A stretch of 64,000 nucleotides of DNA from Antedon mediterranea (Eukaryota > Animalia > Echinodermata). The stretch spans positions 32,919,648 through 32,983,647 of the forward strand of contig NC_092673.1 in assembly GCF_964355755.1 (NCBI RefSeq). The letters run 5' to 3'. Shown here in pieces: positions 1,810-58,108 of this stretch. The position numbers were made by a program, and so were the translations under genes. The first letter of the stretch is position 1. Every line of letters begins with the position of its first letter. The notes beneath the pieces were generated by a model that saw nothing but the letters and a program-made list of their open reading frames with translations, searched no databases and had not been told where the DNA came from.

Positions 1810-4800
1810 TTATATTATCATAATCTTATTTCTTAAAGCTACCCATTTTTCTATACTTGTTTCTTTATTGTTATATGTTTCACATTCAATGTTATATAAC
1901 ATATTGCTTTTAAATGAATTCCATAAAGATTTACCCACTGGCTTATTTAGTGCAGATAACATTTTTATTCTATAAATAGTAAATGCTGCAAAAGTGTAAA
2001 TATAATCTATTAGCTTATCTCCCGTTCTAGTATTAATTGTTTAAATGATATATTATTGTGATTTAAACTTACAAAGATACTAAGCATTTTCCTCCAATAT
2101 TTCTGAATAAATCTACAACTAAAAAACAAATGATTTTCATTTTCAATTTCTCCACATTTGTCACACGTTTGTGTTTCCTTAACTTTCCACTGATACAGCC
2201 GTTTGTTGGTAGGCAGTATTCTATGTAACATCTTATAATTGAATTGTGCTAGTTTCTTATCTTTCATTTTACATACTTTCCGTAACCAAGAAGTTTTCCA
2301 ATCAATGTTGTTATCATTGAAGTACTCTTCCCATTTTAGTTGTGACATTGGAATAATGAAATATTCTTTCACAAACCATGAGTATATTAGTTTGGTAGTA
2401 TTAATCTCATACTTGGTCCCAACTAATTCATCATTATCATCACAATTGAAAATATCTACCTCCTTAATAATACGTTTCAATTTAATTGGTATTGCCTTAA
2501 TAATGCACAAATACTCATTTAACCAGTTTGTTTTACATTGTAGTTTCACCAGTATTTCGTTTGATGTTAAAAAAGTGTTCTTATTAACAATGTCTTTAAT
2601 ACTGATAATGCCACTGTCAATCCAATGCTTGTAGAAAAGCGATTTTTTTTAGTTTAACGTAGTGGTTTCCCCACAGTTGCTCATTCATTATATCGTTATA
2701 AGTTTCAGGTTTTTTTTTAAAGATTCTGTTATAATTTATGTAGGCTTTTATCATATTTTTGTAAAACAATGGAATTTTATCAGAATTAACATCAATAATG
2801 TTATAACATGACATATTAAGTAGAACATTAACATCACATATTTTTTTAAATATAATACATTGAAATATTTTTCCATTTAGCACCATCATCATTCATAATT
2901 CTTTTTAACCAGCCACACATGAGTGCGTTAACATGAAGAGTAAAATAAGGCATTTTAATGCCTCCCATCTCAACATCACCAATTAGAGTTTTTCTTTTTA
3001 TCTTTTCCCTTTTATTGTTCCAAATAAAATTATATATTAGATTTGTAACTTGTGTATATACATATTTTGGAACATCAGTGATATTTGCAGCATATGTTAA
3101 TTTAGATAGTGCAAGACTTTTCAGGATTATTATTCTACCAAAAAATGAGAGATTTCTAGCATTCCATTGTTTTAAAGTCTTTTCTAGCTCTATTATTTAT
3201 TTATTTTCCCAGTTTTTCTGGTACATTCTTCTGTATTATACCCTACATATATGCCTAAAATTTTGATCGGGTGTTTTACCCAATTTAATTCTAAAGGTCT
3301 ATCTATTCTGTTCTTCCATTTACCAATCCAAAAAGCATTGTTTTTTTTTACACTGACTGCTGACTTAATACTTTTGTCATTACCAACATACAAAACAGTA
3401 TCATCGGCTCATTGGCTTATTCTAGCTTCTATGTTATTTTCATTATTTGGAAGTTTAATACCCTTATAGTCTTCTTTGTTTCTTATTCTAGATGCCATTA
3501 CTTCAACCACTAAAATGAATAACAGAGCAGATAGAGGACAACCTTGTCTAATACCTCTTTCCATTTTAAAATTGTTTGAAACCCAACCATTGTTAACTGT
3601 GACACATTCAACGTTATTGTATAATACTTTTACCCAGTTACAAAAGAACATTCCAAAGTTAAACTTTTCTAGAACATTGAACATAAAATCTCTACTAATA
3701 GAGTCAAAAGCCTTCTTAAAATCTAAGGTAATTATTGCCCCTTCGATAGCATTACACTCTGTATAATAAAGCAGGTCTTCTATTAACCGAATGTTTTCAC
3801 CAGCGAAACGGCCTTTTATATAACCTTTTTGGTCTGAACTTACTATTGATTTAATAACCATTTTAAGTCTGTTACTTAATACATGTGCAAGAATTTTGTA
3901 ATCGGTGTTTAAGAGGGTAATGGGACGCCAATTATTCAAATGTTCTCTTTCTCCATCCTTGAACAAAGGGGTGATTACACCTCGTTTTTGCGAAAAGGAT
4001 AATTCTTGAGAATTATAACTTTCATTTAACGCATCGCAAATTAAATGTTTAATATTATTCCAAAAGAAAACATAAAATTCAACACTTAAACCATCCGATC
4101 CAGGTGTTTTATTTTTTTCCATCATTGAAATGGCCTTTTTACATTCATCAATAGTGCCGTAACCTTCACAATTTTCTTTTTCTATTTCTGAAAGCTTGTT
4201 TATAATAGAATTACAAAGGTATTTATTAATTTTTCCAGGGTTTATAACATTTTTTGCGTATAAACCTTCGAAATGTTGTATTTGTTCCTTTAAAATATCA
4301 ATTGGGCTCGTTGCTAAGCTCCCATCTTTAGTAATTAAACTTTTTATGTGTTTCTTTTTACTTTTGGATCTTTCTAACCCAAGAAAGTATTTTGTATTCC
4401 GCTCGCCTTCCTCTATCCATTTTACTCTGGACCTAATTTGCGCGCCTTTTGCTTCTACATTATAAATGTTTTCAAGCTCTATTTTTTTGTTTTCAATTTT
4501 ATTTTCAATGGTTATATCACGATTTTGAGTATTCATAATTGTTTCATTTAAGTTTTTTATTTGTTTTTGTAATTTTTCTTTCTTTTTATTCTGGTTTTTA
4601 TTTTTTTGTTTTCCGTATGCAATTGAAAATTCTTTTATTTTTGTTTTTACAAGCTCCCATAACAAACTTGCACTTACAGGTTCTCTATTATTTTTTAGTA
4701 TTGAAACATCAATTGTTTTAATTACTAATTTTGTAAATGTTTCATCTTTCAGAAAGCTATTGTTGAACATCCATAAACCAGGACCGCGTATTTTTTCATG

Positions 4801-5529
4801 CAAATCTATTTTAATTGATACCGCCTGGTGATCTGTGAGAATAGCTGGACGAATGTCACAGGCTAAAACATCTCCATTTGAAAAGAGATCTTCTGATATT
4901 AACCAGTAATCCAGCCTACGGAAAATGTTGTTAAATCTCTTACGCCACGTAAATTGTCGCTTATTCATGTTTTTGGATCTCCAAATATCATTTAAATTTA
5001 AATTTTTCATTAGGTTTTTAATTGTAAAAACAGATTTATCAGACCTATTTGCGCTACCTTTTTGGTCAATGTCACTATTCATGATGCAATTCAGATCTCC
5101 ACCTAGAATGATAGAATTACCCTTCCCTCCATCAAAGTCATTGTAACATTTGTGTATGGTCCTAAAGAATTCACTTCTATTTTTGCTTTCATTAGGAGCA
5201 TAAATATTTATAATGTCCAATTCCTTTTCATTTATCATTAAATTAAGAAATATATATCTTCCATCAATATCACTTAACTTTTTAACAATTTTGCATTCAA
5301 GACCTTTTCGTAATAGTATCGACACTTCTCTACTATGTGAATTACCTATACTATGGATCGCTTCACCTTCCCAAACAAAGTTTGATTTATTAATAATCTC
5401 ATTTGTTAGATGGGTTTCCTGAAGCAGACATATATCCGCTTTTTGATCTTTTACCCGTTGGAATAGCTTATGTTGCTTATTTATATTTCTAGCTCCTCTA
5501 ACATTTAGTGTTATACAATGTAAATTCAT
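1810..5529 (-). pseudogene. L1/Tx1 ORF2 (APE endonuclease, reverse transcriptase, CCHC), disrupted
   Basis: Endonuclease motifs LNVRG, LLQETH, GGDLNC, RLDYWLIS and TDHQAV; RT motifs WRPITLLNTDYK, LDFKKAFD and RQGCPLS. The catalytic motif reads Q*ADD (TGA at 3409-3411). Further frameshifts follow, then a C-terminal CDKCGEIENENHLFFSC. Confidence 0.92.
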
Positions 5530-5594
5530 AAGATTAGAGTAAAGAGCTTCCTAGGGAAATTACAATATTTAGAATACATATTATTAAGATTAAA

Positions 5595-6921
5595 TTACTT
5601 GTTTTTGTTTCTCTTTCTTAAACTTCTTTTTTCAATACTCTTTGTTTTTTCTTCTGTCCTGCCTTCATTTCCGGACTGTTCCTTCAGATCTCTCGCTGCT
5701 TTCCTGTTTGTGTTAACACTTTTACTTTTTTGCATACTTTTTTCAAAGTAGTCAGTTACCTTCTTCTGTTCATGCTCCTCTCTTTCCCCAACTTCCTGCT
5801 CCTCTCTTTCTTCAGCTTTCTGGTACTTTCTTCCCGGTACTTCTTGTTCCTCTCCTTCTTCAACTTCCTCCTCCTCTCTTTCGTCCACTTCCTGCTCTTC
5901 TCTCTGCTCCTCTCTGTCATCATCTTCCTGCTCATTTTGGTTTTTTGTGTTGTTCTATAGTGATCACACTTGTTTCTTTTTGCGCATTTTCATCATCTGA
6001 TGATTCACTACTTCCATAAATACTAAACACTTCATCATGTGTTTCTGTATCAGATTGTACCGTAGCTCTTTTCCCGTAGTGGTTATCGTTAGCATTACTA
6101 TTTTTTGGGTTTTCAAAGTTAAAAACCGATTCCCAAACTTTATTAATGTATGCACCAGGTAAACCAGATGATGATACATTATGCGCTTCAACATTACATC
6201 TGTCCCTAGTATGCCCTGGTAAATGACACTTGAAACAGATTATATCAGCTTTGCATTGAAAAGCTAAATGCCCAGTCTTTGTACATTTGTTGCATTTCAC
6301 TTCCTGACCGTCATGAAAAGCCCGTGCTCTAAAACCATTTATTATTATATGTCTTGGTATTGGCGATTTTAGCTTTTCTACAACGACAGCTCTGTCACCG
6401 TTTAGCCAGCTGGTTAATTGACCATTAACCCTTATTTTTAGCCTTTTAACATCTCCTATTGGTTTGCATCCTAGCGCTTTCAACTTGCTAGCAATCTCTA
6501 CGTCAGCAACCGATAATGGTATATCCTTTATGACTATTCTCGTTGTTTCCATGTTGTTGTATGCCAAATAAGGATTTTTATCATGAATTGTGATATTACA
6601 ATTCCTAATGTTTAGTCCATTCGTAATTAGTTTCACTCTATCATTTCTATTATTTAGATAAATTCGCCATAGGTTCCGTATTTTTTGAACACCGATTATA
6701 CTTTCTGCAGCAATTATTTTTAGTAGGGCTATACATAGGTCTTCATCTTTGAAAAAGCTTTTTCCTGTTGGTATTTGATCAGCCTTCAAAAAGATTGGCT
6801 TCACTACACTACGTTCTTTGTTTACTGTTTGCCCGTTCATCCTGCTGATTTCGTCACCGTCAGCCTGTGCAGCACTGTACATTCCTTTGTTAGTCCCGTT
6901 TCTATGGGTTTTTGACGCCAT
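5595..6921 (-). pseudogene. L1/Tx1 ORF1 with two CCHC zinc knuckles and an acidic repetitive tail (frameshift near 5940)
   Basis: RRM-like region (RIVIKDIPLSVADVEI) is followed by CNKCTKTGHLAFQC and CFKCHLPGHTRDRC. The Glu-rich tail is in ORF 5595-5888, directly upstream of ORF2. Confidence 0.85.
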
Positions 6922-6969
6922 TGTTTGGCTTTCACCGGGCCTAGACGTGAACGATATACAAATTGTTTT

Positions 6970-8810
6970 CGATTTTATTTGGAATAATAAAAAACAGAAA
7001 AGATAAAAAGATTAACATTAATCAATGATTATAATAGTGGTGGAATAAATGCTCCAGACTTCAGATCTCAAGTCAAGGCACTACAAATGTCATGGCTTAA
7101 AATATTGTACAATGATGACACTTCAAAATGGAAGTGTTTACCTAAAATGTATTTTAACAAAATAGGTCCAAGAGAGGTTATTGAAAATATATCAAATGTA
7201 AAATATAAAGAAACACATTACAGTAGTATGCCTTTATTATATAAATCAATGTTAAAGTATTTAGCTGAATTCAATCAATATTCTGTCAAAATGTCACTTT
7301 CCTATGAACAAATTATAGAACAACCTATATGGGGCAACAACTTGATAACACACAATGGTTTCTCACTCCTTTATAGGAATTGGATTAGATCTGGTATAAC
7401 AAAGATGAAACATATTATAATTGATAACAGATTTATTAATACAAATGAATTACTATTTTTGTTAAATATCAAATCGAATTGGATTGCTGAATATTGTCAT
7501 GTCTACTAAAAGCAATACCACGAGAATAGAAAGATATAATTTATTCAAAAATTGATAATGTAAAAGTTAACGAAGTTATATCAATACAGTATAGTAAATT
7601 GAGTTGTAAAAACATTCGTCTCTTTTTTATCAAAGAAAAATGTAAAGAACCAACCAAGAGTAAAACAAAGTGGGAAACACATTTTAATATAGCGAACGAT
7701 TGGACACTGACGTGGAAAAGAAAAGTAAATGATATTAAAGATAACAAACTTAAAACAGCTAAATTTCAAACTATTGCATTGTATTATTCCTACCAATAGA
7801 AGGCTCTTTAAATGGAATATTAATAATACAGACACTTGCACATGCAATGTAATGTAATAGAAGATGATAAACACTTCTTTTACCAATGTACTGAAGCAAA
7901 TGATTTATGGAAATACATTAATGTTTATACCACATATAAGTTTGGAATTGAGGCAAACTTTCAAAATATTGTACTCGGTACCGGAAACAGATATGTTGAC
8001 CACATGTTCTCTCTTGGATGCTTCTGTATCTATAAAGGACACATTTTGAAAAAAAGTAAAGAAATGGAATTATGGTTCACTTTCTCGCCTCCTTTTGGCA
8101 GAAAAAAATAATAGGTTATACCTTAACCGACTATTATAATACGGTATATTCTACAGAGGTTTATATAACGCTGTGCAATGCCAATAGGTGGTTAAATCTT
8201 TATATAGAATTATTAAAAAAAAAAATGAAAATAAATGAAATAAATATTAAAAACAAAACGAAACGTAACATATAAGTAAGCAACAAATATAACCATGAGA
8301 CATAAAACTAAAACACAAGAGTAAGGAAAGAATTTTTTTTAAAGCTTACTATAATTATTTGAATTTTATATTTTTATTTATGTTCTTATTGTAAAAAAAA
8401 AAAAGAAAGAATTAAGAATAATAATTGTATTGCATTTTATATATTGTAAATATTTATTTATTTATATACCTTGTGGGTATGTATGTATGCATGTGTGCAA
8501 TCATGTACTCGAATATATGCACTTGTGTGTTTTGTACAGAGACATAGACCTATTGTAGAAAGGAATAGTTAAAATAAAAGAAAATAATGAAAAAAGTGGA
8601 TAATACATATAAAAGTATAAAGTATATATATATATATATATTTGACCGAATTGTTTCGATCAAATCGTACTAAAGATAAAAGAAAATACAAGAAAATAAC
8701 AGAACAGAATAACAAGGGAATATATATTTGGATGAAGTGTAAAATCATTGTATTGATCATTTGAGAATGAAATGAATAAAATAGTGGTTAACGCCACAAA
8801 AGAGAAAAAA
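6970..8810 (+). mobile_element. 5'-truncated L1/Tx1-clade LINE (copy B), inserted antisense into the 5' UTR of copy A
   Basis: ORF2 C-terminal fragments (FIWNNK, EQPIWGNNLI, CMQCNVIEDDKHFFYQC) and a 3' AATAAA-hairpin-AAAGAG-A tail. A perfect 16-bp TSD atatacaaattgtttt lies at 6954-6969 and 8811-8826. Confidence 0.9.
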
Positions 8811-10785: not shown

Positions 10786-11018
10786 AAGCAATTGAAGTAT
10801 GTAGATAATATACACCACATTTGTGATTGAAACAATTCAATCAAGAATCAATAATTGCAGAAAAATATGAGTTAAAAGTTAGGTATTAAAAAATAGATGA
10901 TAAAGAGAAAATAAATTCATTTATTTTGAAGGTAAAAAAGTTCAATAGTAAAAGAAATGTGGAAACAGAAATAATTACAGAGAAAAATCAAACAGTGTAA
11001 TTAGTTAGGCAATCACTT

Positions 11019-11316
11019 TGTTGTGATTTTAGGTCGGTGCTGGAATGGCCTGATAATGAAAGCTACTAGGCTTACCTTAACAGTCCCGCTTGTCCTAAAT
11101 CACACAAGTATCCGGAAGCAGTAAATCCAAATATCTTGGTCAATTCCGGTTGCGTCCGTTTCTCCTTGGTTCCTGCTTCGAATAGAACGGTTCGGCCGGC
11201 GTCGAGGCCCCACGTTAACATTTGCATACCCCCTGTATGCAAATCAAGCTATCGGGGCGACGCCCTCGTTCGGTCGGAGGGGTGGTCTGTTTACCCAGCG
11301 GGCGCCGTTCACAACA
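11019..11316 (-). repeat. 3' LTR (298 bp; TGTTGTGA...TCACAACA)
   Basis: Direct repeat of 20531-20828, identical by eye, with an 8-bp terminal inverted repeat and TG...CA ends. Confidence 0.96.
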
Positions 11317-11324
11317 CTCCTCCC
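11317..11324 (-). other. Polypurine tract (GGGAGGAG)
   Basis: Purine run on the minus strand immediately upstream of the 3' LTR. Confidence 0.75.
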
Positions 11325-11548
11325 GTGTTTGAAAAGCGGGCACCCCGTCCTGGGTCCACCTCGGGGGTAAACCAGGTGATTTTCGTACGTGAAAAAATAC
11401 CCGATACCCGTAGCTATGTAGACTGCTCCCAACGATCTCTTCAGATAGTCAATGGCCGTGGGACATGCCAGTAGCACCGTCCCCTGCTTCCGTCAGCAAA
11501 CGGCACCTGGTCCCTGTCTGAGAGAGAAGAGAAAATAAACGCGAGTAC

Positions 11549-13473
11549 CTAATTGTTAACCGAGGACTTGCAGTCCGCACATCGATATAAGTCGATGTCC
11601 AAGGCCTCAGATGGTGCAATATTCACACATGCACCATGGTACCACACCTCGCAATAGTCACATTGTATCATAAATGAGCCGGCCCAGGGCTGGCGACATA
11701 GACAATACAACGGTCCTGCATCCGGATCTGTAGGTGGAGAGAGAGGGGGTAAATGAAAATCAGCCAGCCATTTGGGAAGTTGTCGATCCCGACAGGGCTT
11801 CAGCTTATCATGATTTAACACCACCGTCTTATTTCTCAGCTGCACCTGAAATAAACAAGAACTAATAACGTTAGTAATAATACCGGGCCCCTTCCAGGGG
11901 GGACACAATTTCTTGCACTTTTTCTGAGGGGTAGCGTTGTCAAGAACGTAGACCTTGTCCCCGCATTGGTATGGACGTTCCAGCACTCGAAGATCATAGT
12001 CCCGTTTCATTCTCTTCTGAGTCTGCTTTAGCGTATCCCTAGCGATGCCATGGGCATCACGGGTCGCTTTCACCAAATCTGCAACGTAGATAGCGGCTTC
12101 CTGCTCACCAGTGGACCGGCATTCTCCGAACATGAGATCAGCTGGTAAATTAACCTCTCGGCCCAGCATCAGCATGTTTTGAGTAAAACCAGTCGAGCGG
12201 TTCACCGTGGCGCGTAGTGCACCAGCAATCTGCGGGAGATAGACATCCCAGTCTCGTTGTCTCTTCCCAACGAAGCATCGTACAGCATCCATAAGTGTGC
12301 GATTAAATCGCTCTACTTGACCATTAGCCGACGGTCGGTAGCTTGTCGTCCGGGTCTTGTGGATCTGTAAAACTTTACATAAAGATGCAAACAATTCACT
12401 CTCAAAATTTCTTCCCTGGTCTGAGTGTAACTGAAAAGGTACACCGAATCTAGAGAAGAAGTCCCTTACTAGGGCTCTAGCGGTTACCTCCGCAACCTGA
12501 GACGGGAGCGGGCTGATCTCAACCCATTTTGTGAATTGGTCGACCATCATAAGAACGTAAATATTCCCCTGTTCAGTTTTTGGTAACGGGCCGAGGAAAT
12601 CGATATGTACGCGTTCCATGGGAACGCCGGCCTGGAATTCAGTCAACCGGTGTCGACCTTGCCGAGTAGCCTTCTTGCTTCTATTACAAATATTGCAAGT
12701 CTGTACATACCTCTGTATATCCCCGCCCATACCGTACCAGAAAAACTTCTCCTTCAATCGGAACTTGGTCCGGGCGACCCCTTGATGACCCGCCGACGGC
12801 AAATCATGATGTAACCGCAACCAGTCCAGAACAGGTGCCAAGTCAGGATCACTCGTTTGATGTTGCCGTAGCTCATCCAGTGAGTAACCCCAACACTCGG
12901 CTCCCTTCGGCCGTAGCTGTACTGCAGCCACTCGTCCACCATCATCGTCCTGTAGGAAAAAAAACTGAATCGTACCGTTAGTAGCAGTCCGTGATACCTC
13001 TATACTTACTTGTCCCCCGGGGTCCCAAGGAACATCGTCCCCTGGCAGAGTACCCTCCAGGTGGTCCACGGCTACCTGTTGTACGTGCGCGATGGGCACA
13101 ACGTCGTCCACTTCATCCCGGAACGCTGACCATCTCGCATCCGCTCGTTGACAGTACGAACAGCCCCCACAGGGAAGCCCTTCAAGCGCAGGCCGTTCGT
13201 GGCTACTGTCATGAGTTTCTGGTCGGCGAGAAAGAGCATCGGCGTTGCCATGGTGTTGCCCTCGGCGGTGTTCAATCAGCAGGTGGTACTGGCTCAACTC
13301 CTCGATCTACCGAGCGAGTTGCCCCTGTGGCTGCTTGAAGTTGAGGAGCCAGGTCAGGCTGTTGTGATCAGTCCGCACTCTAAAAGGTCTGCCTAGAAGG
13401 TAGTGCCTAAAATGCCTTGTCATGAACACAATTGCTAGCAACTCCTTGCGTGTAGTGCAATAGTTCCGTTGTT
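11549..13473 (-). pseudogene. pol: Gypsy pol 3' part: RNase H C-half, integrase (HHCC, DDE, GPY/F) and C-terminal PHD finger
   Basis: RNase H motifs YCTTRKELLAIV and TDHNSL, with a premature TAG at 13307-13309. Integrase motifs H-x6-H...CNIC, HIDFLGP, HSDQGRNFES, NGQVERFNRTL and WKGPGII. PHD finger LYCLC...CDYC..WYHGAC...CADC at 11570-11710. Confidence 0.93.
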
Positions 13474-15745
13474 TTTTTTTTTTTTCTCTTTCGTGGGGGT
13501 CACCCACATTTATTCATTCCTTTTACAAATATATATTACATAACATACATACATTTTTATAAAATAAAGAACAATAAAATGCAACATAACAGCTAAAAAG
13601 GCACTATATCTATACATGTACATAAAATCGATGGAGTAAAAGTATGCTTTAAAAACGTACATTTTATGTTTATTGCAAGTTATAGTAAAAGTACAACTAT
13701 TTATCATTTAAATTTACTTTATATTAAGAAATGTATTAAAAAGTAGCTGTTTCTTTTATTATATCTTAAATCAGTACTCACAATTTGTTTCTTTATTTCT
13801 TTTGACCTTATATTACATCCGTTACAAATATATACACACATACACACATTAATATACCTATTTACATTTACGAATCAGTTTAATATAGTTATTATAAACA
13901 CATTATATGCTACTTTTTATGTTTTGGCCTTGTTTAACATTTGTTTCATTCCACTATTTCTATTCCTTTAAAGTTCTTTTCTTACTATGTTGGCCCTTTA
14001 CATTTACCAGTTTGTTTACTTATATGCTTGACCGTGTGTTTCAGTCTATGTTTTACCCTAATACATTTATTTCTATCATGTATTAGTTTTAGTATAAGTC
14101 TAGGTGTTAGTTTTACACTACAGCTTGTACTAGTTTTATATTTTTCTTATTTTATGAATTCTAATAATTTAATTTTAGCATCATTCCATTTTATAACTGC
14201 TTTATACTGATTACATGCGTATTCATTTTCTATAAGATTTTTTAATTCAAACTTAAACATATTCAAGATACTTTTTGATTCGTTACCCATCATGTTATCT
14301 AATAAACTAAGCCTTATGCGGGATTTGTATATACAAAACGTAAAGATAGATGTTAGCTCATTTACAAGTTTATCTTTGGAACCAGTAACTATATCAAACC
14401 AATGTATTGGCGTTTCATTGGGAAAACATTCAACAATAAGATTATTGAATTTCCTCCAAACTGGCTTAATCACTTTACACTTAAGTAACATATGTTCTTC
14501 GTTTTCTATCACATTCTTACATCTATCGCAAATATTAGTTTTAGACAATTTCCAAATATGTAATCTTTTATTACAAACAAGTATGCGATGTAAAAGTTTA
14601 AAATTGAATTGCGCAACTTTTACCATATGTTTCATATCTTTGACTTTATTATTCCATATTTTGTTCCATACCATAGTCTTATTTAAAAACTCTGCTTCCC
14701 ATTTTACTTGGGAGATTGGCACTGTCTTTAGTTCAAATATAAACTTATCATAAAAACCTGTTTTAACATTTGATTTGAATAATTCATTTTTAATATCAAC
14801 ATTAACTTGTTCTTTCTCTAATCTATGTCGTGCCAATACTTCCTTCCATTCAATAGGAATAGCATTCATGAGCTTGAAGTATTCTATTATCCCATTATGC
14901 TTTACTAATAACGTGGGAATTAAATCTCTAAGACTTACAATTGTGTTATTGACCAAAATGTCACCAATTGTTTTATAGCCCGACTTTAACCAATCTTTGA
15001 AGTATAAAGACTTTCCGTCTGACAGTATATGTTTATTTTCCCACAAGGTTTGAGATTTAATTTCCTGTACATTTTGAGGATCTAACATTTCAATATTATT
15101 TATTTTCACAATTGCATTAATCATATTTAAATAAAATTCAGGCATAATTTGTAATTGTTTATGCTCTTCAAAATTAAGCCTACTTATCTCTAATGTACAT
15201 TCTATAGGGTACATGTAATATTTTGGAATACATTTCCACTTGCCTGGGTCTGGGCTAAGTAGTCTCTTAACCCAGTTTAGCTTTAACGAGTTCACAACTA
15301 CATAAAAATCAATCATATTAACCCCTCCTTCTTCTATTTTATTTATAAGTGTTTTCCTCTTAATCTTTTCTTTTTTATTTCCCCATAGGAATCTATACAG
15401 TAACTTCTCTACCATTGGAAATACATGTTTTGGTACATTGATAATACTAGCATTGTATATTAATTTTGAAATTGCTAGACTTTTAATTATTATCATTTTT
15501 CCAAAGAAGGTAAGGTGTCGTTTTTCCCATAGCCTTAAAGTATGTTCTAACTCCATAATTTTATCATCCCAGTTTTTTTTTCCACAAACACCTTTTTTAC
15601 AGCCTACATAAATTCCGAGGAATTTCACTGGCTCTTTCGTCCAAGTGATACCACAAGGGGTTGCTAGGTTATTCTGAATTGATCCAATCCAGATTCCTTT
15701 ACATTTTCCTTTATTTAGCTTCAACCCTGAAATATTACAAAATGC
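13474..15745 (-). mobile_element. 5'-truncated L1/Tx1-clade LINE (copy C), inserted in the Gypsy RNase H
   Basis: Open ORF2 C-terminus at 14147-15745 (ISGLKLNKGKC...CDRCKNVIENEEHMLLKC) with poly(A) at 13474-13485. A 12-bp TSD agttccgttgtt lies at 13462-13473 and 15746-15757. Removing the insert restores LTHEQRN|YCTTRKE. Confidence 0.93.
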
Positions 15746-17900
15746 AGTTCCGTTGTTCATGAGTTAGACGAGCACTTGCGTATGCAATTACCTTCTTCTT
15801 ACCTTCCTGCACCTGGAGCAGCTCGCCTCCTAGCGCTTGATCCGAAGCGTCGACATCCAGAATAAATTCATCAGTCCCGTTCGGCAAGGCGAGTAGAGGA
15901 GGTTGAACGAGAGCAGCTTTCAGGTCGGTGAACGCTTGTTGTTGTTCCTCACCCCAGTGAAACTTCACCTCTTTTTTAGTGAGTTCATATAAAGGTGCAG
16001 CTAAACCAGCAAAGTTCTCAATGAACTCTCTATGGTAATTAGCCAACCCCAAGAACTGCTGTACTTCTCTCAGATTGGTAGGTGTCGGCCAGTCTTGAAC
16101 AGCCTTTATATCCGAATCGGACACCGCCACCGTATCCTCCCCAACGATTCGCCCTAAAAATTCAACCTGTTTCTGAAAGAAAACACACTTTTTAGGTTTA
16201 AGTTTAAAGTTGTTAACACGAAATCGCTGCAGAACCTGAGAGAGGTTGCTGAGATGATCTTCAAACGTTTTACCTAGCACGACAATATCATCGAGAAATG
16301 CCAATACCGTATCCCACGCCAATCCCCGCAGCACCAAACCCATGGCACGAGAGAAGGTTGCAGGACAATTGGTAAGACCAAATGGCATTTTCACGAATTC
16401 ATACAGGCCATGCTTGGTGATAAACGCTGTCTTCTTACGGTCTTCATCTTTCATCTTAATCTGCCAGTACCCCCAAATCGCGTCCAGTTTAGAAAACCAG
16501 ATATTCCCCGACAGTGTGTCAAGGCAATCACGAATCAGAGGTAATGGATACGCATCTTTAGTCGTGATGTTGTTGAGAGCTCGATAGTCAATGCAAAAGC
16601 GCACAGAACCATCGCGCTTCCGGACCAACACAGGCGGTGACGCCCATTCGGACATGGATGGTTGAATAACACCAGCCTCCAACATCTTCTTTATCTCCTT
16701 TTCCTCCTCCCCCACAAAGCGCAGAGGAGTATGGCGGAGCCGTTGCCTGATTGGTGAGGCATCTCCAGTGTCGATGCTGTGTTCAATATCACCAAAGGTG
16801 CCAATGTCGAACTGATGAGCGGCGAAGACATCCTGGTAATCAACCAATAGTTTAGTGAGCGCGTCAGCCTCTTCACTTGAGAGATTAGATCTCGAAGAGT
16901 CCAACATGCCCACTAGGTGCGCCGGCACCCCCTCAGGTTGGTCACCGTCATCGCCCCCTTGATTCGACAAAGCATCCTCGGACGGAGTCACCCCCGTCTG
17001 GAACACACTCACCCCTTCAGCTTCCCTGGCCGTACCTATCTGTCTACCCTTTTTCATAGTAAGGTAGTGATCAGATGTGTTGATGACACAGATGCATGGC
17101 GCATCAGTGCGTAGATGTAAAGTTGCCGGTATTGCCACATCGTCAGTAGTTGGAACTGGCTCTATAAAGAAATCAGGCATACATAAATTGTTAGTCACAA
17201 GTTTACATTTAACATGAGCGGCTGAGTGAGGAGGAATTACTCTCCGTTTAGCCACCGTTACCTGGGCAACCCTAGGTTCCACCGGTGAATCCCCTCTTAG
17301 AGATATGGTACTGCCCCCAATTGCCAAAAGCAAATGTCCACAATCGATAACGGCTCCCTGTGGATGAAGAAAATCACCACCCAAGAGCATATCGTCATTG
17401 ATGGGGGCAACATAAAAGAACTCATGGTACTCTTTGGTTCCCAATGTAAACTGTAGCGGCCCCACCTTCGACCCTGGCATAGATGTCCCCCTCTCTGCCA
17501 AAGTAAAGGACAGGGTGGACACCACAGGTGGTGCCGGATCTAGACTTTTATAAACCTTATCGGATAGTATGGTAAAATCCGCTGCAGTATCCACGACTGC
17601 GTGAATTTTGGTACCATTGACAAAGGCAGTTGCATGCAACGCATTCAACGATTTTACCCTATTGATAACAATCCGGGTTTGAGTCTCTTCAGTTTTGGTT
17701 GTCGTCGGTGTAGATGATTCAATCAGCCCTGAGCTAATCGCAGATGGCTCAATGATCGTCACAGAATCCGGTGCTACCCCCTCTGTATTTACAGGCTTGG
17801 CCATCGGGCCTAGCTTGGGGATAGTCGACGAACCATCTTCTTTCTGGCCAGCTTCCGGAACCGGGTTAGGTCGTCGGCCCTCTGACCCAACCCTTACTCG
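15746..17900 (-). CDS. pol: Gypsy pol 5' part: aspartic protease, reverse transcriptase and RNase H N-half (in the -1 frame relative to gag; interrupted by L1 copy C)
   Basis: Motifs AVVDTAA, LLGGDFL, WASPPVLVRKRDGSVRFCIDYRALN, MPFGLTNCPATF, AFLDDIVV and FILDVDAS. The frame is open from 17900. Confidence 0.93.
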
Positions 17901-17906
17901 TTTAAC
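17863..17906 (-). promoter_or_regulatory. Predicted -1 ribosomal frameshift signal (G_UUA_AAC plus 10-bp stem)
   Basis: Heptamer at 17906-17900, a 6-nt spacer, and GGGTTGGGTC pairing with GACCTAACCC. pol is in the -1 frame. Confidence 0.8.
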
Positions 17907-19705
17907 GGATCCGGCTCATTGCCACTAACCTGACGCAAACGGCTCGCTAATCTTGGACACTCCCTGCAGAAGTGTCCCACCTCCTTACATTCAAAGCAAG
18001 CCAGTTCGCCTGGTCTCAGGAAACGCATGAGCTGATCCAATTGATTCCGCATGGCGGCAATCTCCGTGTTCACGGTGTTCTCCACCCGTCCCAGATTGGT
18101 ATTCAACGTCTGGAAATTACCCTCCACAGTAGCCAAACGGGCCTCCGTAGTAGGAGTATTGTTGGTGGGTGGCACCGACGTCACAGTTCGAGGCTGGTTC
18201 TGGCAGTCAGTAGGTGCGGGTTCCGGAGGAACCCAAGCCTGTGCTGGCCTTTGAAACGTTACACGGTTTCCCCTCATAGGCCTCCCTCGCACCTGCTGAA
18301 TGGACACCTCATCGCCAGTTTCACCCTCGGTATCGTCCTGGTCTTCTGAAGGTAGCTGAAAAGATAGTGGGGGTGCAAAAGAAGTACGGACCGTGGACCT
18401 AACATGAGGTTTCACGGTATCCTTAACCTTACTCTTACGTTTACTATATAGCCCCCTATAACTATCATATTTTTCAAACTCCCTAATAGCTCTGGGAATA
18501 GTTGAACAGTGCTTGTGCATGACGTGCCTACCTACTTCTGCATCCCTGCACCCAATACAAAACCTAACTACGGCCTGCTCTTGGATCCACTCCTTGGGCA
18601 AATCCTTAAACGCCTTTCTAGTCAAGGTTAGCACTCTATCTCCCCATTCTTCTATAGTCTCTCCCTCGTTTTGCGTAGCAGTCTCTAATTTAGCTTGGAG
18701 GACCGCCGCCCCGTCTAAACACCAAGTAAGGACGTCCTTACTTTCACGGTTTGTGAGTTCCTGCTCCTCTATAAATGAAGCCAACCGCCGCTTAAAAAAG
18801 GACCAGTTGTCTCCCCTCCCCCTAAACGTTAGAGACCTAGGTATATCTTTTTTACGCATCCTCCTACGTTCTAAAAAACCCTGCCGGCCTTCATAGTGCC
18901 TGATTCTTGGGGTAGCCCTAAGACACTCCACTGCTGTCCTAGCCCCTGCACTATGTCTATCCGACTGTCTATCCGACTCTCTACTCCTGCTACTATTAGT
19001 ATCAGCACCATCCCCACTAAGGTCACTATCGCTGGCCGATGGAGATCGCCGGCGAGCCCTAGTTTTAGACCTAGCGGTTTTAGATAGTCTCCTGGGGAGT
19101 CTTTCCTCCTCGTCCTCCCTAGAGCTAAAACACGAGTCTAAGGTTATCGGAGATTGCTTTTTGATGTAGCTTCTACGTTGTGTTGACCTATTCTTACTCC
19201 TATCCTGGTCAGAACGCCCAGCGAAGGTGGATGGCGTATAAGCCCCAAGCCCACCTTCGAGATAACGAGGATCACTAGCAGGTCCTGTAGTATAATACGT
19301 ACCTGGTACGTCTAATAAAGGAGTAGCCTGGGGCGATGAGAGGACGTGGTATCGACCACTATGGCCCCCGTCATTTTTCCCCCGATATGCCCCTTCCATA
19401 CCTACAGATTGTGAGACCTGCGACCCCTTTCTGGCCGCTCTATTTTGCTTCTCCACTAGAGGTGACACATTATCAATCATCTGGCCTACGCCTCCCCCTA
19501 AACTCGGATTCGGCTGAAAATCCAGGTAGTCCACCAACCTGGCAGTACCAGCTACTCCGTGTATCTGATTAATATTAGAGGGCGTAATGTTGCCATGGGT
19601 AGCCCGCCATTTAATTATTCTAGTTGCTCGTTTCTTCCCTACATTAGGGACTCCATGAAGATCTTGCACTGGGCAAAAGTTAACTAGAACCTTATTAGAC
19701 GACAT
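17894..19705 (-). CDS. gag: Gypsy Gag (603 aa) with N-terminal HhH-like motif, capsid-like region, coiled coil and CCHC knuckle
   Basis: Motifs LTFRGRGDNWSFFKRR, QNEGETIEEWGDRV, VVRFCIG and CFECKEVGHFCREC. It lies between the PBS and pol. Confidence 0.9.
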   Translation of the reverse strand: MSSNKVLVNFCPVQDLHGVPNVGKKRATRIIKWRATHGNITPSNINQIHGVAGTARLVDYLDFQPNPSLGGGVGQMIDNVSPLVEKQNRAARKGSQVSQSVGMEGAYRGKNDGGHSGRYHVLSSPQATPLLDVPGTYYTTGPASDPRYLEGGLGAYTPSTFAGRSDQDRSKNRSTQRRSYIKKQSPITLDSCFSSREDEEERLPRRLSKTARSKTRARRRSPSASDSDLSGDGADTNSSRSRESDRQSDRHSAGARTAVECLRATPRIRHYEGRQGFLERRRMRKKDIPRSLTFRGRGDNWSFFKRRLASFIEEQELTNRESKDVLTWCLDGAAVLQAKLETATQNEGETIEEWGDRVLTLTRKAFKDLPKEWIQEQAVVRFCIGCRDAEVGRHVMHKHCSTIPRAIREFEKYDSYRGLYSKRKSKVKDTVKPHVRSTVRTSFAPPLSFQLPSEDQDDTEGETGDEVSIQQVRGRPMRGNRVTFQRPAQAWVPPEPAPTDCQNQPRTVTSVPPTNNTPTTEARLATVEGNFQTLNTNLGRVENTVNTEIAAMRNQLDQLMRFLRPGELACFECKEVGHFCRECPRLASRLRQVSGNEPDPLNE

Positions 19706-20516
19706 GATCTAAAAATCGTCTCTCTTCTATTGGGTTGTTATGCTCCTAAATCTAGTTACAGTGTATGGCAGATGTTATTAAGCAAAGAGTACGATACAAA
19801 TTAAAATACCGCCAGACGTAATAAAAATTACAGGCCCAACAGTAGAATAAAATATCGTCAATGCAGTAACACACACACAATATTGCAAAATGGTTGTTGG
19901 AGATGCAAATATAATAAAATATTCCACCAGCAAACCTGCAATGAGAAACAACTAGATAATTCAAAAAGACGTCAATACAGTTTAACAACACTTACCACTA
20001 AACCTTCCCCCGATGCAAAGAAAGGAGAGCGATAATGCCACTGTGAGGTTAACACAATAATACGCACAGCCAGTATAATTTCTAAAGATGAAAAACCTGA
20101 CTGACGGACGAAAAGGATGTTATCAATAAAAAACAATCAAATTTAAAATTAGTGGTGCCACTCAGTTCAACGGCCACGCCTAGTATCCCACCAGGTGATA
20201 CGGCCTAGTAAACTGCCCACTAATCCTTCAACTATAGCAAAATAAATACAACTCCCGGTACGCATCGACTACCCCGTCGATACGCTAATCAGCAAGTATC
20301 CAAATGCCACAATACTGCGTGATTAACTTTACCGGTATGTTGTAATCTTCAATAAAGATATCGACTTCAATAAACTAACAAATTCACCGTAAGTACAATA
20401 AGTTAATAGTTTCAGCAGAGGACGAAATACCTCGCAATCAACCCGATCACGTTAAGAATGCCAGCTGGCAATCAAGGCACCCGCCTCCCCACCAAAAAAA
20501 AGATTTCCGAGCTTTT

Positions 20517-20529
20517 GCTCGCAGCGCCA
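20517..20529 (-). other. Primer binding site, probably tRNA-Ser (TGGCGCTGCGAGC)
   Basis: Begins TGG 1 nt after the 5' LTR and is complementary to a ...GCUCGCAGCG-CCA 3' end resembling metazoan tRNA-Ser(CGA/UGA). Confidence 0.75.
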
Positions 20530-20530
20530 A

Positions 20531-20828
20531 TGTTGTGATTTTAGGTCGGTGCTGGAATGGCCTGATAATGAAAGCTACTAGGCTTACCTTAACAGTCCCG
20601 CTTGTCCTAAATCACACAAGTATCCGGAAGCAGTAAATCCAAATATCTTGGTCAATTCCGGTTGCGTCCGTTTCTCCTTGGTTCCTGCTTCGAATAGAAC
20701 GGTTCGGCCGGCGTCGAGGCCCCACGTTAACATTTGCATACCCCCTGTATGCAAATCAAGCTATCGGGGCGACGCCCTCGTTCGGTCGGAGGGGTGGTCT
20801 GTTTACCCAGCGGGCGCCGTTCACAACA
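20531..20828 (-). repeat. 5' LTR (298 bp)
   Basis: Direct repeat of 11019-11316. Confidence 0.96.
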
Positions 20829-20960
20829 AGTTACTGATAATTGAAAGCCATTATTACATAATTATTATGTTGCATGAAATTTGAAAATGTCGTTAATTTG
20901 ATGAGATAATTTGATTAAGAACAGAGGAAAGTACAGTACTTATCTCTTAGTTGATACATT

Positions 20961-21983: not shown

Positions 21984-23397
21984 TTACGTTACGTTAGCCT
22001 CACACCATTGTTTTGTCTTCCATACATCAAACTGTGTTTTTCGTAAAGCCATTATTTCTGATGAAAGCTCGTAGAGATATGCTTCTCCTTCCCCTTCTTC
22101 TTTTAAGTTTTGATGTAAGAGTTCTCGACTTTTGCTTGAAATTTCTGATGACTGTGACTGAAATGAAAAATGCTTATTTTTCTTCTTATTTTCAAGCAAT
22201 CTAACCTGTTGTTGGGACTTAGACTTACTATTAGCAATTTTGTCTTTATTTGATTGAATATTTGTAGAAATTGTGAATCTTTCCAAGTCGTCCAAACTTT
22301 TAAGAGTGGTTTCATCCGACACACACCGTTTCAGAGCGTATTGGAGTAGACATTTAGGTTCATCCTTGACAATCAGGTGAACCCTTTTCTTTTCACCGAT
22401 CGGATATGCTGACTTTAAAGATTGAAGGATTTGTTTCCATTCTTGATTTTGTTTCCCATCAAACACAAGAATAAGATGGCTAGGTTGATTATTCCAAGAT
22501 GTAATCAATTCCATATCTTCTTTTCTCAACATGTCACTTTGGCAGAAAATAACACTCGTCGACGATGTCTTCGTTAAAAACGCGATATGTAATGGAAGAT
22601 TGCAGACGTTGCCTCGTAAGTTCATAATCCCAAAACCTGTTGGAAAGCTATCTCCATCATTTCCCTTAGGAAGATACCACATTATTTCTAGTAATCCATT
22701 AGAAATTACTTTTTTCATTTTTCCACCTTTACTTTCACATGTTAAGAAATGATCTTGTTTCGAGCTAATGACTTGATTGAGCAGTTTTGATTTCGATAAC
22801 TTAGGTCTTCCTACACGCAGAGCACACACTATTGGTAGTTTATGAACTGCCAGTGATCGTTCACGAGATGGGTTTGAGCAAGTCTTCAATATTTTTCGCA
22901 ATGTGCTTATTGCAAAAGAATGCATCTCAATAGCTACTGTTCGTGACACGGTATCTATTACTGGCAATATTAATGGAATGCCTAACTGACATTGTGACAG
23001 CTTTTCTACTAATATCTGCATGAGGAAGTCATCACTACATAAATAAATAGTGACGTAAGAACGTCGAGGGGATGTACCCGTAGTTCATCTTCTATAGTAA
23101 CATCTTCATTTGTCTCCAAAGAATAATTTTGCAGAAAAAGGTCTAATGAGGTGATATCTGTAGATGTTTCCGTTTGTCGATTATGTTCGAACAACAAGCC
23201 TTCGTAGTTACACGCGATAATATTTTGTAGCATAAACCAAGGGAGTTGGCGTGGATGTTTGATATCTGATTGTTTAATAACATTGGCTTAAGCGTTAGTG
23301 CCTTGTTCCTTGTAATTTTCTTTGGAAAACAGTTAGGACTAGGTAGTTCCAGTGATGTTAATAAATCAAGATATTGATCATAATCAGGAAGCGCCAT
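21984..23397 (-). pseudogene. VLIG/GVIN1-like GTPase paralogue, N-terminal third only, frameshifted and truncated at the LINE
   Basis: Three overlapping ORFs align to the gene at 40434-45152 (LQNIIACNYEG vs LQNIVTCNYEG; ILVEKLSQCQLGIPL vs ILIEKLSICQLAIPL; GLLEIMWYLP vs GLLEIAWYLP). A splice acceptor tttcag lies at 23414-23419. Confidence 0.85.
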
Positions 23398-40433: not shown

Positions 40434-43400
40434 TTAAATGTCGTACAGCTTTTTCATATCTTCTTTAGCTTCTTCTAATGTAATATTCTTCCATCCTTCC
40501 GGAATATCAGTCAACTTTGTACCGTAGAACTTAGCTAGTTCAGTATTATATGTTGCCAAAAACCATTTCCAGAACTTCTCCGACTCGTCTGCCAGAGGTT
40601 CAATTTTCCATGATGCGCATCTGGTATTCACACTCTTATAATTTCTAAAATTAATGTATTCATTATTCGTAATTTTACTCTTAAAGCTATAGTTACACAT
40701 TACTGCAGTTGTGCACATATCTGTAAGAAGTTTTTCAGTATGCGCCCATCTACCTCCAGTAACTCCCATTGGTATGTGACAATCTGTACGATGATGATCA
40801 TGTTTCCCATTAAGATCGCATAGAGCATGACAAAACGGACACACTTCCTGGCAATTTAGCAGATCAGCTAAAAACAACTGACAGCAGGATTTGATAATTT
40901 CACTGAAAATGCTACTATCAAAAGCTTTAATAACAGTGTCTTCGATGCCTTTTAGTTCAACCATCAATGTGTCGATGAGCTCGTGCAATTTCAAGTCCCT
41001 TTCTTCATCAAACAACCTAATGTCTGTTTTGAGACCTAACTCTTCATCAGTATGTTCCAGTAAGGCTGGCCACCACAATTTCATTGTTGTCATAGCAGTA
41101 TCTCCTTCTTTGTCCTTCTTACTTACTACCTTACTTTCTGTACGTAAGGTAGTGATATCTTGCTTTAATCCAGTTACTATTTCTGAAACTTTATCCCTGT
41201 ATTTTTGTTCTAGTAAAGAAATACCAGTTTCATCATTCTTTTGTAAACACATATTATGTATCTTTGTAAAGCTAAATTTGGTGATACACAAAATTGGCTG
41301 AAATAAACATGGCAAAAGTGATTGGAAGCCCATGTCGGCTTTTTCAATCAACATCATTGCATGGAGAGACCTCTTACTAGAAAACCCTTTAGCCGTACTG
41401 TGTCTTAGATGGTCGATTACTTCAAATTTACATTTAGCTGGAAGAGATGTTTTAATAGAATATGTAAGCTCTCGTGATATAGCTGACGCAACTTTAACAA
41501 CTATTTGGAGATCCTTACATTCTTCTTTAAACATGTGCCATAGTCTTTCCTTTTGAGACTCCATGTATAGTCTCGGGTCATTTTCGCGTTTGTGTTGCTC
41601 CTGCATATCTTCCAAGCTGGGTATAAGTACAGCATAGAAATTGCACACGGCTAGTGGAATAATACTGTTTTTGTTAATGGTAACTTTTTCATCTATCTTC
41701 ATGTTTTCCAATCCACTTGATAGCTTACTAAACAGTTCAAATCCAAGTTGTTTATTGTATTTTGTTCCACTCTGTCTATGATTTGAGATTACCGTTTTAA
41801 GATCTTCTAAAATCTGTTGTCTAGCGTAATTAGCTTTATATGCATACGCTTTCTTGCCCTTGAAACGGAACACTAGTTTCACATTTTCGAACCATGAAAA
41901 ATCCAGATCGTTTTCTTGTACTTCCGTTCGGGAAAGGTCAGATTGCCATACGCGCTTTACTTCTAATTTATGGTTTTCTATTTGATAGTCTTCAGTGATT
42001 ATTTGAAAAGACGTTCTTATATCTTCATAATCATCACCAATTGGTACTTTTGTAACCCACTCATTCCAGTTTTTAGCAAACTCACTTTCAAGTTGTTCAT
42101 CAGGCAGTTTTAGGTGTCGATACTCATCGGCAAGGGTTTTAGCTTTTTCATAGATTTCTTGTTCGTACGTTTTAATATTGGCCTCGATTTTAGCTCTTCC
42201 AGTTGTTTTAATTACAATAGATTTAAATGTACCCCTCATGTCTTTTTTGATTTCACTACAAACATCTGAAAGTTGTATTTCCACCTTTTTTTTCCATTGA
42301 ATTGCTTTTTTGTTTTCTTTAAAATAAGTCTCCATGCTTGATTGAACATCACTGATGTCTTTCTCTAACTTCTGTAAGTAATCGCCAAGACATTTTTCTC
42401 CCTTTTCATTTACATTTTCAACTGAAAACTCCTTACATTTAATTTGAAGGCTTTCGCTGTATTTCAGTGCATTTCTTCTTAATGTACGGGCATGCTTCAC
42501 ATGTTCTGCATTCAACGCATTAAAAGCTTGGATGTCGAGAGAATTTCTAAAGCTGAATACAAAATCTTGACATAATATTGCTTTCCAAAGATCAGACAGC
42601 AATGTTATGAAATTAGGTATACTTTTTGGTTCTGAATTTTTCATGATTTCCACGATTTGTTTCTTTACTTGAAGAATGCATTTGCTGTAACCGGGATTTG
42701 GAGGCGCCATCGGTGGATCTCCTTGCCAAAGGCTGGAAATGTACATAATGTGCTTGTGTTCTTGAAAGGTAATGACATCAGAAAACGATTTATATCTTTC
42801 ACTGCAATTCTCGGCATGAGCTGCAATTTCAGTAATCTTATCCAACATTTCTCGCATACTTCTTTTTTGTGTCGTATTCAATTCAGATGCTGTGACATCA
42901 GTGACGTTTTGGTGTACAAATAAACAGCTAGGTTTAATATTAACATTACCCATTTTCATAAAAGCATGTACAGCAATTTGAAGTGTGTCTTGCATGTCAG
43001 TTGGGTTTTCTCCCATAATATTTATTATGGTAAGATCACCTAAGCCAATCACAAGCGTGGCCAGTTCGTTGTCACGGTTGTTGGTATGTTCAATGCTAGC
43101 AGATTCAGGAGATCGCAACCCCTCAGTGTCAACCACCAGAATGTAATCACACTTTGCCTTTAAATCTGTATCTAAAGGTACAAGCTGGGCAAATATGCCT
43201 TTAGTACATCTACCAGCACTAACAGCAAATTGTAAACCAAACATAGCATTTAACATAGTTGATTTCCCGCTACTCTGAATGCCTAATACAGATAACACAA
43301 ACATCTTTTTATCTTTGCCAATTTGACACTTCAGAGATTCGAACACGGCCTCAACCCAAGTGAGAGGCACGTGGCTGGCATCACCATCCATTAACTCAAT

Positions 43401-45152: not shown

Positions 45153-45401
45153 CTTCTCTATAAAACTGTAAATAAAACAAACATACAAATACATTATTCT
45201 TAAAAATAAAATCAAAAGGCAGACTAATGTTCTATTTTCTATTGTTTTTGTGTGTAAGTTTCAAAACTGCGATCCCTGATGATCCGAGATTGGCTGGCTA
45301 TGTATAGTTGCGAAACGTCACTCACTCGTTTTGAAAAGTAGATTAGACGCAAGGAAAACAATAAACAAACGAAGCATGGATTAATGGATAACGATAACGA
45401 T

Positions 45402-58036: not shown

Positions 58037-58108
58037 GGTTTCGTAGTGTAGTGGTTGTCAAGTCTGCTTAACACGCAGAAGGTCCCGGTTCGAGCCCTAG
58101 CGAAACCT
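58037..58108 (+). tRNA. tRNA-Val(AAC)-like gene, probably a pseudogene
   Basis: Acceptor stem GGTTTCG/CGAAACC, anticodon arm TCTGC-TTAACAC-GCAGA and B-box GGTTCGAGCC. The T-stem and D-stem have mispairs. Confidence 0.7.

Follow-up and report, generated by a model that had tools for sequence, protein, structure and literature searches.

Introduction

For targeting, retroviruses and Ty elements rely on proteins of the host, and to our knowledge the self-encoded readers known on integrases point to silent chromatin. In chromoviruses, for example MAGGY, Pol terminates in a chromodomain, a reader of histone methylation that follows the C-terminal domain of integrase (PMC12440569, PMC6673714, bioRxiv 2021.11.30.470311), whilst CopiaMBD of arthropods carries a captured host chromatin-mark reader as a proposed integration guide, though this element belongs to the Copia superfamily and reads methylated CpG (PMC6673714, which also makes a general statement on PHDs on mobile elements). 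PHD fingers have been described on several related proteins: the Chlamydomonas elements Gypsy-7a_cRei and REM1 encode a Gypsy Gag-Pol with a PHD (PMC9940879, and for REM1 a citation therein), with Gypsy-7a insertions 2.6-fold enriched in intergenic DNA (PMC9940879); Grau-Bove et al. report cnidarian retrotransposons fused to H3K4me-reading PYGO-like PHDs (bioRxiv 2021.11.30.470311); and the Gypsy-like transposase of Ginger1-9_HM ends in Ulp1 and a PHD (PMC2836005). Among elements with a third reading frame, Juno and Vesta of bdelloid rotifers have a non-env, enzymatic ORF3, a 3'-5' nuclease (DEDDy exonuclease), typically with spliced messages; they are without a chromodomain, and the paper makes no mention of an integrase PHD (PMC5408684).

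We analysed a 64,000-nucleotide stretch of the crinoid Antedon mediterranea (hereafter the window, in which all coordinates are given), which contains a Ty3/gypsy element with a PHD finger at the end of its integrase. In place of the chromodomain of chromoviruses it has a PHD whose cage is of the H3K4me3 type, which makes active chromatin and not heterochromatin its predicted target; although it has no chromodomain, it probably works like a chromovirus. Gypsy-7a_cRei and REM1, compared here by description, are green-algal, and the legend depicting them lists the PHD before the integrase, which is list order only (PMC9940879). The PHD described here is nearest to those of KDM7, BPTF and CXXC1, not PYGO as in the cnidarian fusions, and the ORF3 of intact relatives encodes a TatD nuclease of the amidohydrolase fold, preceded by helical and Cys/His domains, unlike the exonuclease of Juno and Vesta.

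The original prediction knew of no named, characterised system of this type, whilst allowing for uncharacterised examples in repeat libraries. We found no mollusc or echinoderm Gypsy integrase-PHD clade described in bioRxiv 2021.11.30.470311 or PMC2836005, although the supplementary tables of the former may list such genes; the term PHD is absent from the main text of PMC13524379, PMC6238403, PMC12440569 and PMC8556966, and has one irrelevant mention in bioRxiv 2026.05.21.726589. The papers on MolGy, PolGy, Cigr-1 and CsRN1 contain no PHD in the main text and motif searches of their readable supplements were negative, though one of these names may already apply to the clade. A literature search, the scope of which excluded Repbase, GyDB and most subscription journals, returned no paper on an animal Gypsy integrase-PHD clade, and a search on TatD in such elements gave no relevant title. 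The clade is apparently undescribed in animals, but the idea of a PHD on an integrase is less new than the clade, because earlier papers report PHDs on Gypsy-type polyproteins and on Ginger transposases.

The Antedon element and its parts

The element spans 20828-11019 on the minus strand, as do all of its features given below, and is bounded by LTRs which are 100% identical over 298 nt: the 5' LTR at 20531..20828 (298 nt, TG...CA ends, 8-nt terminal inverted repeat) and the 3' LTR at 11019..11316. One base past the 5' LTR is a primer-binding site (20517..20529), a 13-nt motif starting TGG, presumably of tRNA-Ser type, and a polypurine tract (PPT) lies at 11317..11324. The flanking 4-mers at 11015-11018 and 20829-20832 match at three of four bases and form a candidate target-site duplication. 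Two LTRs with TG...CA ends, a primer-binding site, a PPT, and gag followed by a pol in the order protease (PR), reverse transcriptase (RT), RNase H (RH) and integrase (IN) identify a Ty3/gypsy element; in intact relatives PR, RT, RH and IN are all within one ORF. Among the JGI loci, none contained an element complete with its two LTRs and the flanking sequence on each side, and several are circular contigs.

The gag ORF (17894..19708) encodes an N-terminal helix-hairpin-helix motif and a CCHC knuckle, with Pfam matches that are both under the curated cut-off (HHH_3, E 1.4e-4; zf-CCHC, E 0.006). This DNA-binding-like motif (PF12836) opens Gag family-wide, here at 19708-19580 and also in the gag of loci L006, L014 and L024. 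The 5' part of pol (15746..17915) encodes the protease, RT and the start of RNase H, as found by Pfam (aspartyl protease, E 2e-6; RVT_1, E 7e-32; RT_RNaseH_2, E 7e-19). Between RNase H and integrase (13180-13150 here), 83 of 88 family Pols have a conserved PCxGCxxC motif, which may be an additional zinc site; outside the family it occurs in 2 of 42. The integrase occupies a frame of 585 aa (13306-11549), in which the H2C2 zinc finger and DDE core have approximate bounds of 12290..12820 (Integrase_H2C2, E 1.2e-15; rve, E 2.8e-15), followed by an SH3-like C-terminal domain with a GP motif at approximately 11791..12019, whose structural model aligned weakly with the C-terminal domain of HIV-1 integrase (rmsd ~2.3, E 0.03-0.06).

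A PHD finger closes Pol

The integrase frame runs unbroken into a complete C4HC3 PHD finger (11570..11707; residues 535-579 of the frame, PF00628, E 2.7e-8, above the curated cut-off), as had been predicted from the sequence, and the peptide quoted in that prediction is exact. The pattern occurs once in the six frames of the window and was not found in 30 codon shuffles. Pfam detected this PHD and no chromodomain in the 585-aa frame, and no chromodomain accession is among the precomputed domains of relatives. The finger sits after the integrase C-terminal domain, separated by a linker of 23-48 residues in the family, and closes Pol; here the stop codon (11549..11551) follows six residues past its last Cys. 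It belongs to the element, as originally proposed, because it lies between identical LTRs and in frame with integrase, upstream of the PPT and 3' LTR. The frame was also said to stop just before the PPT and 3' LTR: this order is right, but the gap is ~225 nt, because the Antedon copy is without the ORF3 that intact relatives have there.

The best matches amongst solved structures are PHF8 (E 3e-17), PHF2, KDM7A, BPTF, CXXC1 and DIDO, in agreement with the PHF8/PHF2/KDM7 and BPTF type assigned at the outset. The cage of the PHF2 PHD consists of Y7, Y14, M20 and W29 (PMC9898751), and alignment of these residues gives Y534 (11707), W541 (11686), M546 (11671) and W555 (11644), reproducing the Y/W/M/W cage read from the sequence beforehand; an acidic D550 is also present. 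The ING2 PHD is reported to bind using W-M-Y alone (PMC9898751, PMC3241642), and Trp is described as a mark of H3K4me3 readers, with the cage absent from readers of unmodified H3K4 (PMC3241642). AlphaFold placed a disordered linker between the SH3-like domain and the PHD, the latter with a moderate pLDDT of about 63-77, and a Foldseek search with the PHD model returned nothing at E<=0.001, its top rows being BPTF, KDM7A and PHF2 at E 0.003-0.006. The best host PHD matches, CXXC1, PHF2, KDM7A, BPTF and PHF8, differ by no more than about 6 bits, so that no single donor gene stands out.

To describe the finger across the family we used 92 PHDs dereplicated at 90%, with a median pairwise identity of 57%. 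Position I of the cage is Tyr or Phe in 90/92, and Met and Trp are each invariant (92/92), whilst adjacent positions vary freely. An Asp follows the third Cys in 83 of the 92 and in the Antedon copy; the residue before the cage Trp is acidic in 86/92 but Val here, and the position of PHF2 E22 is mostly Gln. The closest matches among solved structures and host PHDs support the prediction that the PHD is of the KDM7/BPTF/CXXC1/DIDO H3K4me3-reader type.

The PHD marks one clade of Ty3/gypsy elements

When the integrase tail served as the query, PF00628 was present in 26 of the 30 longer proteins and in all 32 of similar length; as this query contained the PHD, the search was repeated with RT-RNase H alone, taking the best 120 of 1,779 matches. 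In this sample 81 Pols had at least 55% RT identity, 70 of which end in a PHD, the remaining 11 being seven that stop early and four with a basic tail; none of the 42 rows below 55% RT identity had a PHD, among the matches listed. Of the 70 PHDs, 67 retain Y/F-M-W and all have the Trp. In an RT tree of 125 rows (FastTree only), 75 PHD rows and eight truncated rows form one branch (SH 99), adjoined by five basic-tailed, PHD-less rows, and in the integrase tree all 14 chosen PHD rows group together (SH-aLRT 100), both trees having been built without labelled chromovirus references. The PHD thus marks one RT-defined Ty3/gypsy clade, bearing out the proposal of a PHD-carrying lineage, and is retained in other copies of the family rather than being confined to this one. 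A second, independent PHD gain in P0175 and P0178, suggested by the FastTree integrase tree, was not upheld, as their joining the main clade was not rejected (AU p 0.61).

The family is widespread in marine invertebrates: named hosts are echinoderms, molluscs and a brachiopod (Anneissia japonica, Lytechinus pictus, Mercenaria, Mytilus, Gigantopelta and Lingula), with the Gigantopelta and Lingula records being without a PHD; the nearest named relative is from Anneissia japonica, at 76% over the integrase core. The PHD of the Antedon copy is covered by contigs in all four sequencing runs compared. Within the nearest cluster 5 of 16 sequences (P0026 and 4 of the 15 others listed) stop within the PHD, directly following a short run of Gly; these ends may represent assembly slips or real losses. 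The ESM Atlas holds one unnamed integrase-PHD cluster, mostly molluscan. Two further proteins include a Tpt1/KptA RNA 2'-phosphotransferase domain (PF01885; E 4e-43 and 4e-54, respectively), P0144 between integrase and PHD and P0118 at the Pol N-terminus. The family also flags annotation errors: the Mytilus member P0061 is annotated as 'COMPASS component SPP1', and P0093 and P0351 are filed as bacterial proteins in metagenome-assembled genomes, where they are likely to be host DNA in symbiont bins.

Chromatin readers in the same integrase position

Across the 150 best representatives and the RT matches listed, relatives outside the PHD clade mostly end in a basic R-x-R...P motif. In PHD-less sister integrases (P0148, P0153, P0156, P0030 and many of P0159-P0308) an acidic linker precedes a basic R-x-G-R...P motif, which is reminiscent of nucleosome-binding arginine anchors. 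Two other reader types occupy the position of the PHD. In P0154 and the two other sequences of its cluster this is a CW finger (Pfam E 4e-15; MORC3, E 1.6e-11), a domain that reads H3K4 methylation. P0267, a single sequence, has an ING-type PHD (E 1.8e-14 to ING3), and ING PHDs are listed among H3K4me3 readers (PMC3241642). Both P0267 and P0154 are only loosely placed on the trees. This distribution suggests that H3K4-methyl readers have been captured repeatedly into the integrase slot, and since three reader types share one position, selection on reading the H3K4-methyl mark can be argued; repeated capture of this kind would be a natural experiment on targeting.

A TatD nuclease in intact relatives

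Intact relatives carry a third ORF after pol; neither this nor the broken state of the Antedon copy featured in the original prediction. From 74 metagenome-contig loci we counted 66, leaving out L067-L074, which are mostly PHD-only matches resembling host genes, with L073 a short family fragment. Where at least 1.5 kb follows the PHD motif, 28 of 31 loci matched an ORF3 profile (20 of 23 without the eight loci used to build it). ORF3 is 700-1,080 residues in length and ends in a C-terminal TatD nuclease (PF01026, E 1e-27 to 1e-39 in eight of nine ORFs scanned). The metal-ligand motifs of TatD nucleases (HxH, Glu, His, His and Asp) are all five present in 8/8 aligned ORF3s, and the TatD model superposes on YcfH with Z 27.1 and an rmsd of 2.9 over 251 residues. 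The full layout is a helical N-terminal domain, a long disordered region, a Cys/His finger with a helical domain, and TatD; Pfam gave no match to the non-TatD domains and fold searches were filled by TatD. In L002, L004, L006, L014, L021, L022, L024 and L026 the ORF lies just past the Pol stop.

ORF3 is probably expressed from a spliced message, as an acceptor-like pattern suggests: a polypyrimidine tract and CAG at 11518..11539 form a candidate ORF3 splice acceptor, and a pyrimidine tract with AG within 150 nt after the Pol stop is found in 9/19 loci, compared with 2/19 and 5/19 in control stretches. The nuclease may trim or protect element nucleic acids or counter host silencing.

Possible roles of the PHD finger

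We propose that the PHD acts as a targeting module. It is likely that it would remain on integrase after protease processing, and very likely that it would bind the H3 tail with K4me2/3 in the aromatic cage; it would then tether the integration complex and bias insertion to promoter-like active chromatin, in parallel to the way in which chromoviral chromodomains steer to heterochromatin. That a predicted H3K4me3-binding PHD steers integration to active chromatin in this clade is our main reading, to which we assign an overall probability of roughly 0.6. The one surviving insertion, inside a LINE, cannot test targeting and gives it no support, and Grau-Bove et al. point out that targeting active chromatin may harm hosts (bioRxiv 2021.11.30.470311). 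If both binding and target bias are true, the clade would have an element-encoded route for an LTR retrotransposon into active promoters, and one could predict from it at which places in the genomes of molluscs and echinoderms PHD families alter gene regulation.

Alternatively, the PHD might bind methylated H3K4 without choosing sites, anchoring the pre-integration complex to chromatin or retaining it in the nucleus, or serving post-integration expression, possibly with ORF3. Conservation of the cage fits such binding equally, the sole insertion site seen lies in a LINE, and the Gag helix-hairpin-helix motif and TatD ORF3 are further nucleic-acid modules, suggesting an anti-silencing toolkit; against this, the PHD occupies the slot where chromodomains are described as directing integration in chromoviruses, and three reader types recur there, so that we regard binding without site choice as rather unlikely. 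A different ligand has also to be considered, such as H3K4me2/me1, found in enhancer-like chromatin, or some non-histone protein that is methylated, at any rate for subfamilies with Asp at cage position II: this position, the second aromatic, is Trp or Tyr in 44/92 fingers but Asp in 31/92, the PHF2 PHD is reported to bind methylated VRK1 as well (PMC9898751), and PDB entry 2ri7 is, by its title, a BPTF Y17E mutant in complex with H3K4me2. However, the cage of TAF3, a listed H3K4me3 reader, also includes an Asp (PMC3241642), whilst the Antedon copy has Trp at position II and a full four-wall cage like PHF2, making another ligand improbable. Finally, the view of the PHD as a neutral passenger, or as a host exon fused by chance in this copy, is hardly credible, the truncated members being its sole support, as the finger lies in frame between identical LTRs with contig cover in every run compared, and its clade-wide conservation across several phyla in the RT-only sample refutes a passenger.

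Steering to active chromatin thus remains the preferred role, and a broader picture can be drawn around it, in which an undescribed animal lineage of Ty3/gypsy elements would aim its own integrase at H3K4me3 chromatin through a captured PHD, as a mirror of chromoviruses, the wider group having taken three H3K4-methyl readers (KDM7/BPTF-type PHD, ING-type PHD and MORC-type CW) and the PHD clade having added an intact TatD ORF3 for the possible functions named above. We hold this combined picture tentatively, at a little short of even odds.

Damage to the Antedon copy and its genomic setting

An inserted LINE, an in-frame stop and deletions have broken the Antedon copy. A ~2.3 kb LINE 3' fragment with poly(A) (13474..15745, minus strand) lies inside RNase H, flanked by a 12-nt target duplication at 13462-13473 and 15746-15757, and the LINE-free joint 13461-15746 was found in all four sequencing runs compared. 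An in-frame TAG is present in the RNase H region (13307..13309, minus strand). At 12816..12817, directly before the integrase zinc finger, other copies have an additional 174 bases (runs X6 and X10), and gag is ~34 residues shorter than that of locus L006. Further sequence is present in other copies at 11487..11491, where they diverge from the window at 11487 and rejoin at 11491, with loose ends on both sides (runs X5 and X10), whilst one X1 contig spans the short form. The TatD ORF3 was likely lost at this junction, and a search of the 64-kb window with the ORF3 profile gave no match. Internal losses thus occur at several points in an element whose LTRs are identical, and the Antedon copy may be a deleted, non-autonomous derivative which recently moved in trans.

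The element is flanked by an ORF1-like frame, which has no Pfam name, and by an endonuclease frame (Pfam E 6.6e-8), which together are probably one older LINE. This insertion site is a repeat-rich stretch with no visible promoter, and lies ~24 kb away from where the window's sole long host-like ORF begins. This ORF, at 40434-45260, is a gene for a URGCP-like very large GTPase of 1,608 aa in a single frame, and there is a separate URGCP fragment at 21984-23084 (minus strand). Another LINE at 3409-7011 (minus strand) has a CCHC-bearing ORF1 separated by a 24-nt Glu-rich repeat from an endonuclease-RT ORF2, and ARAGORN identified one tRNA-Val(AAC) gene at 58037-58108.
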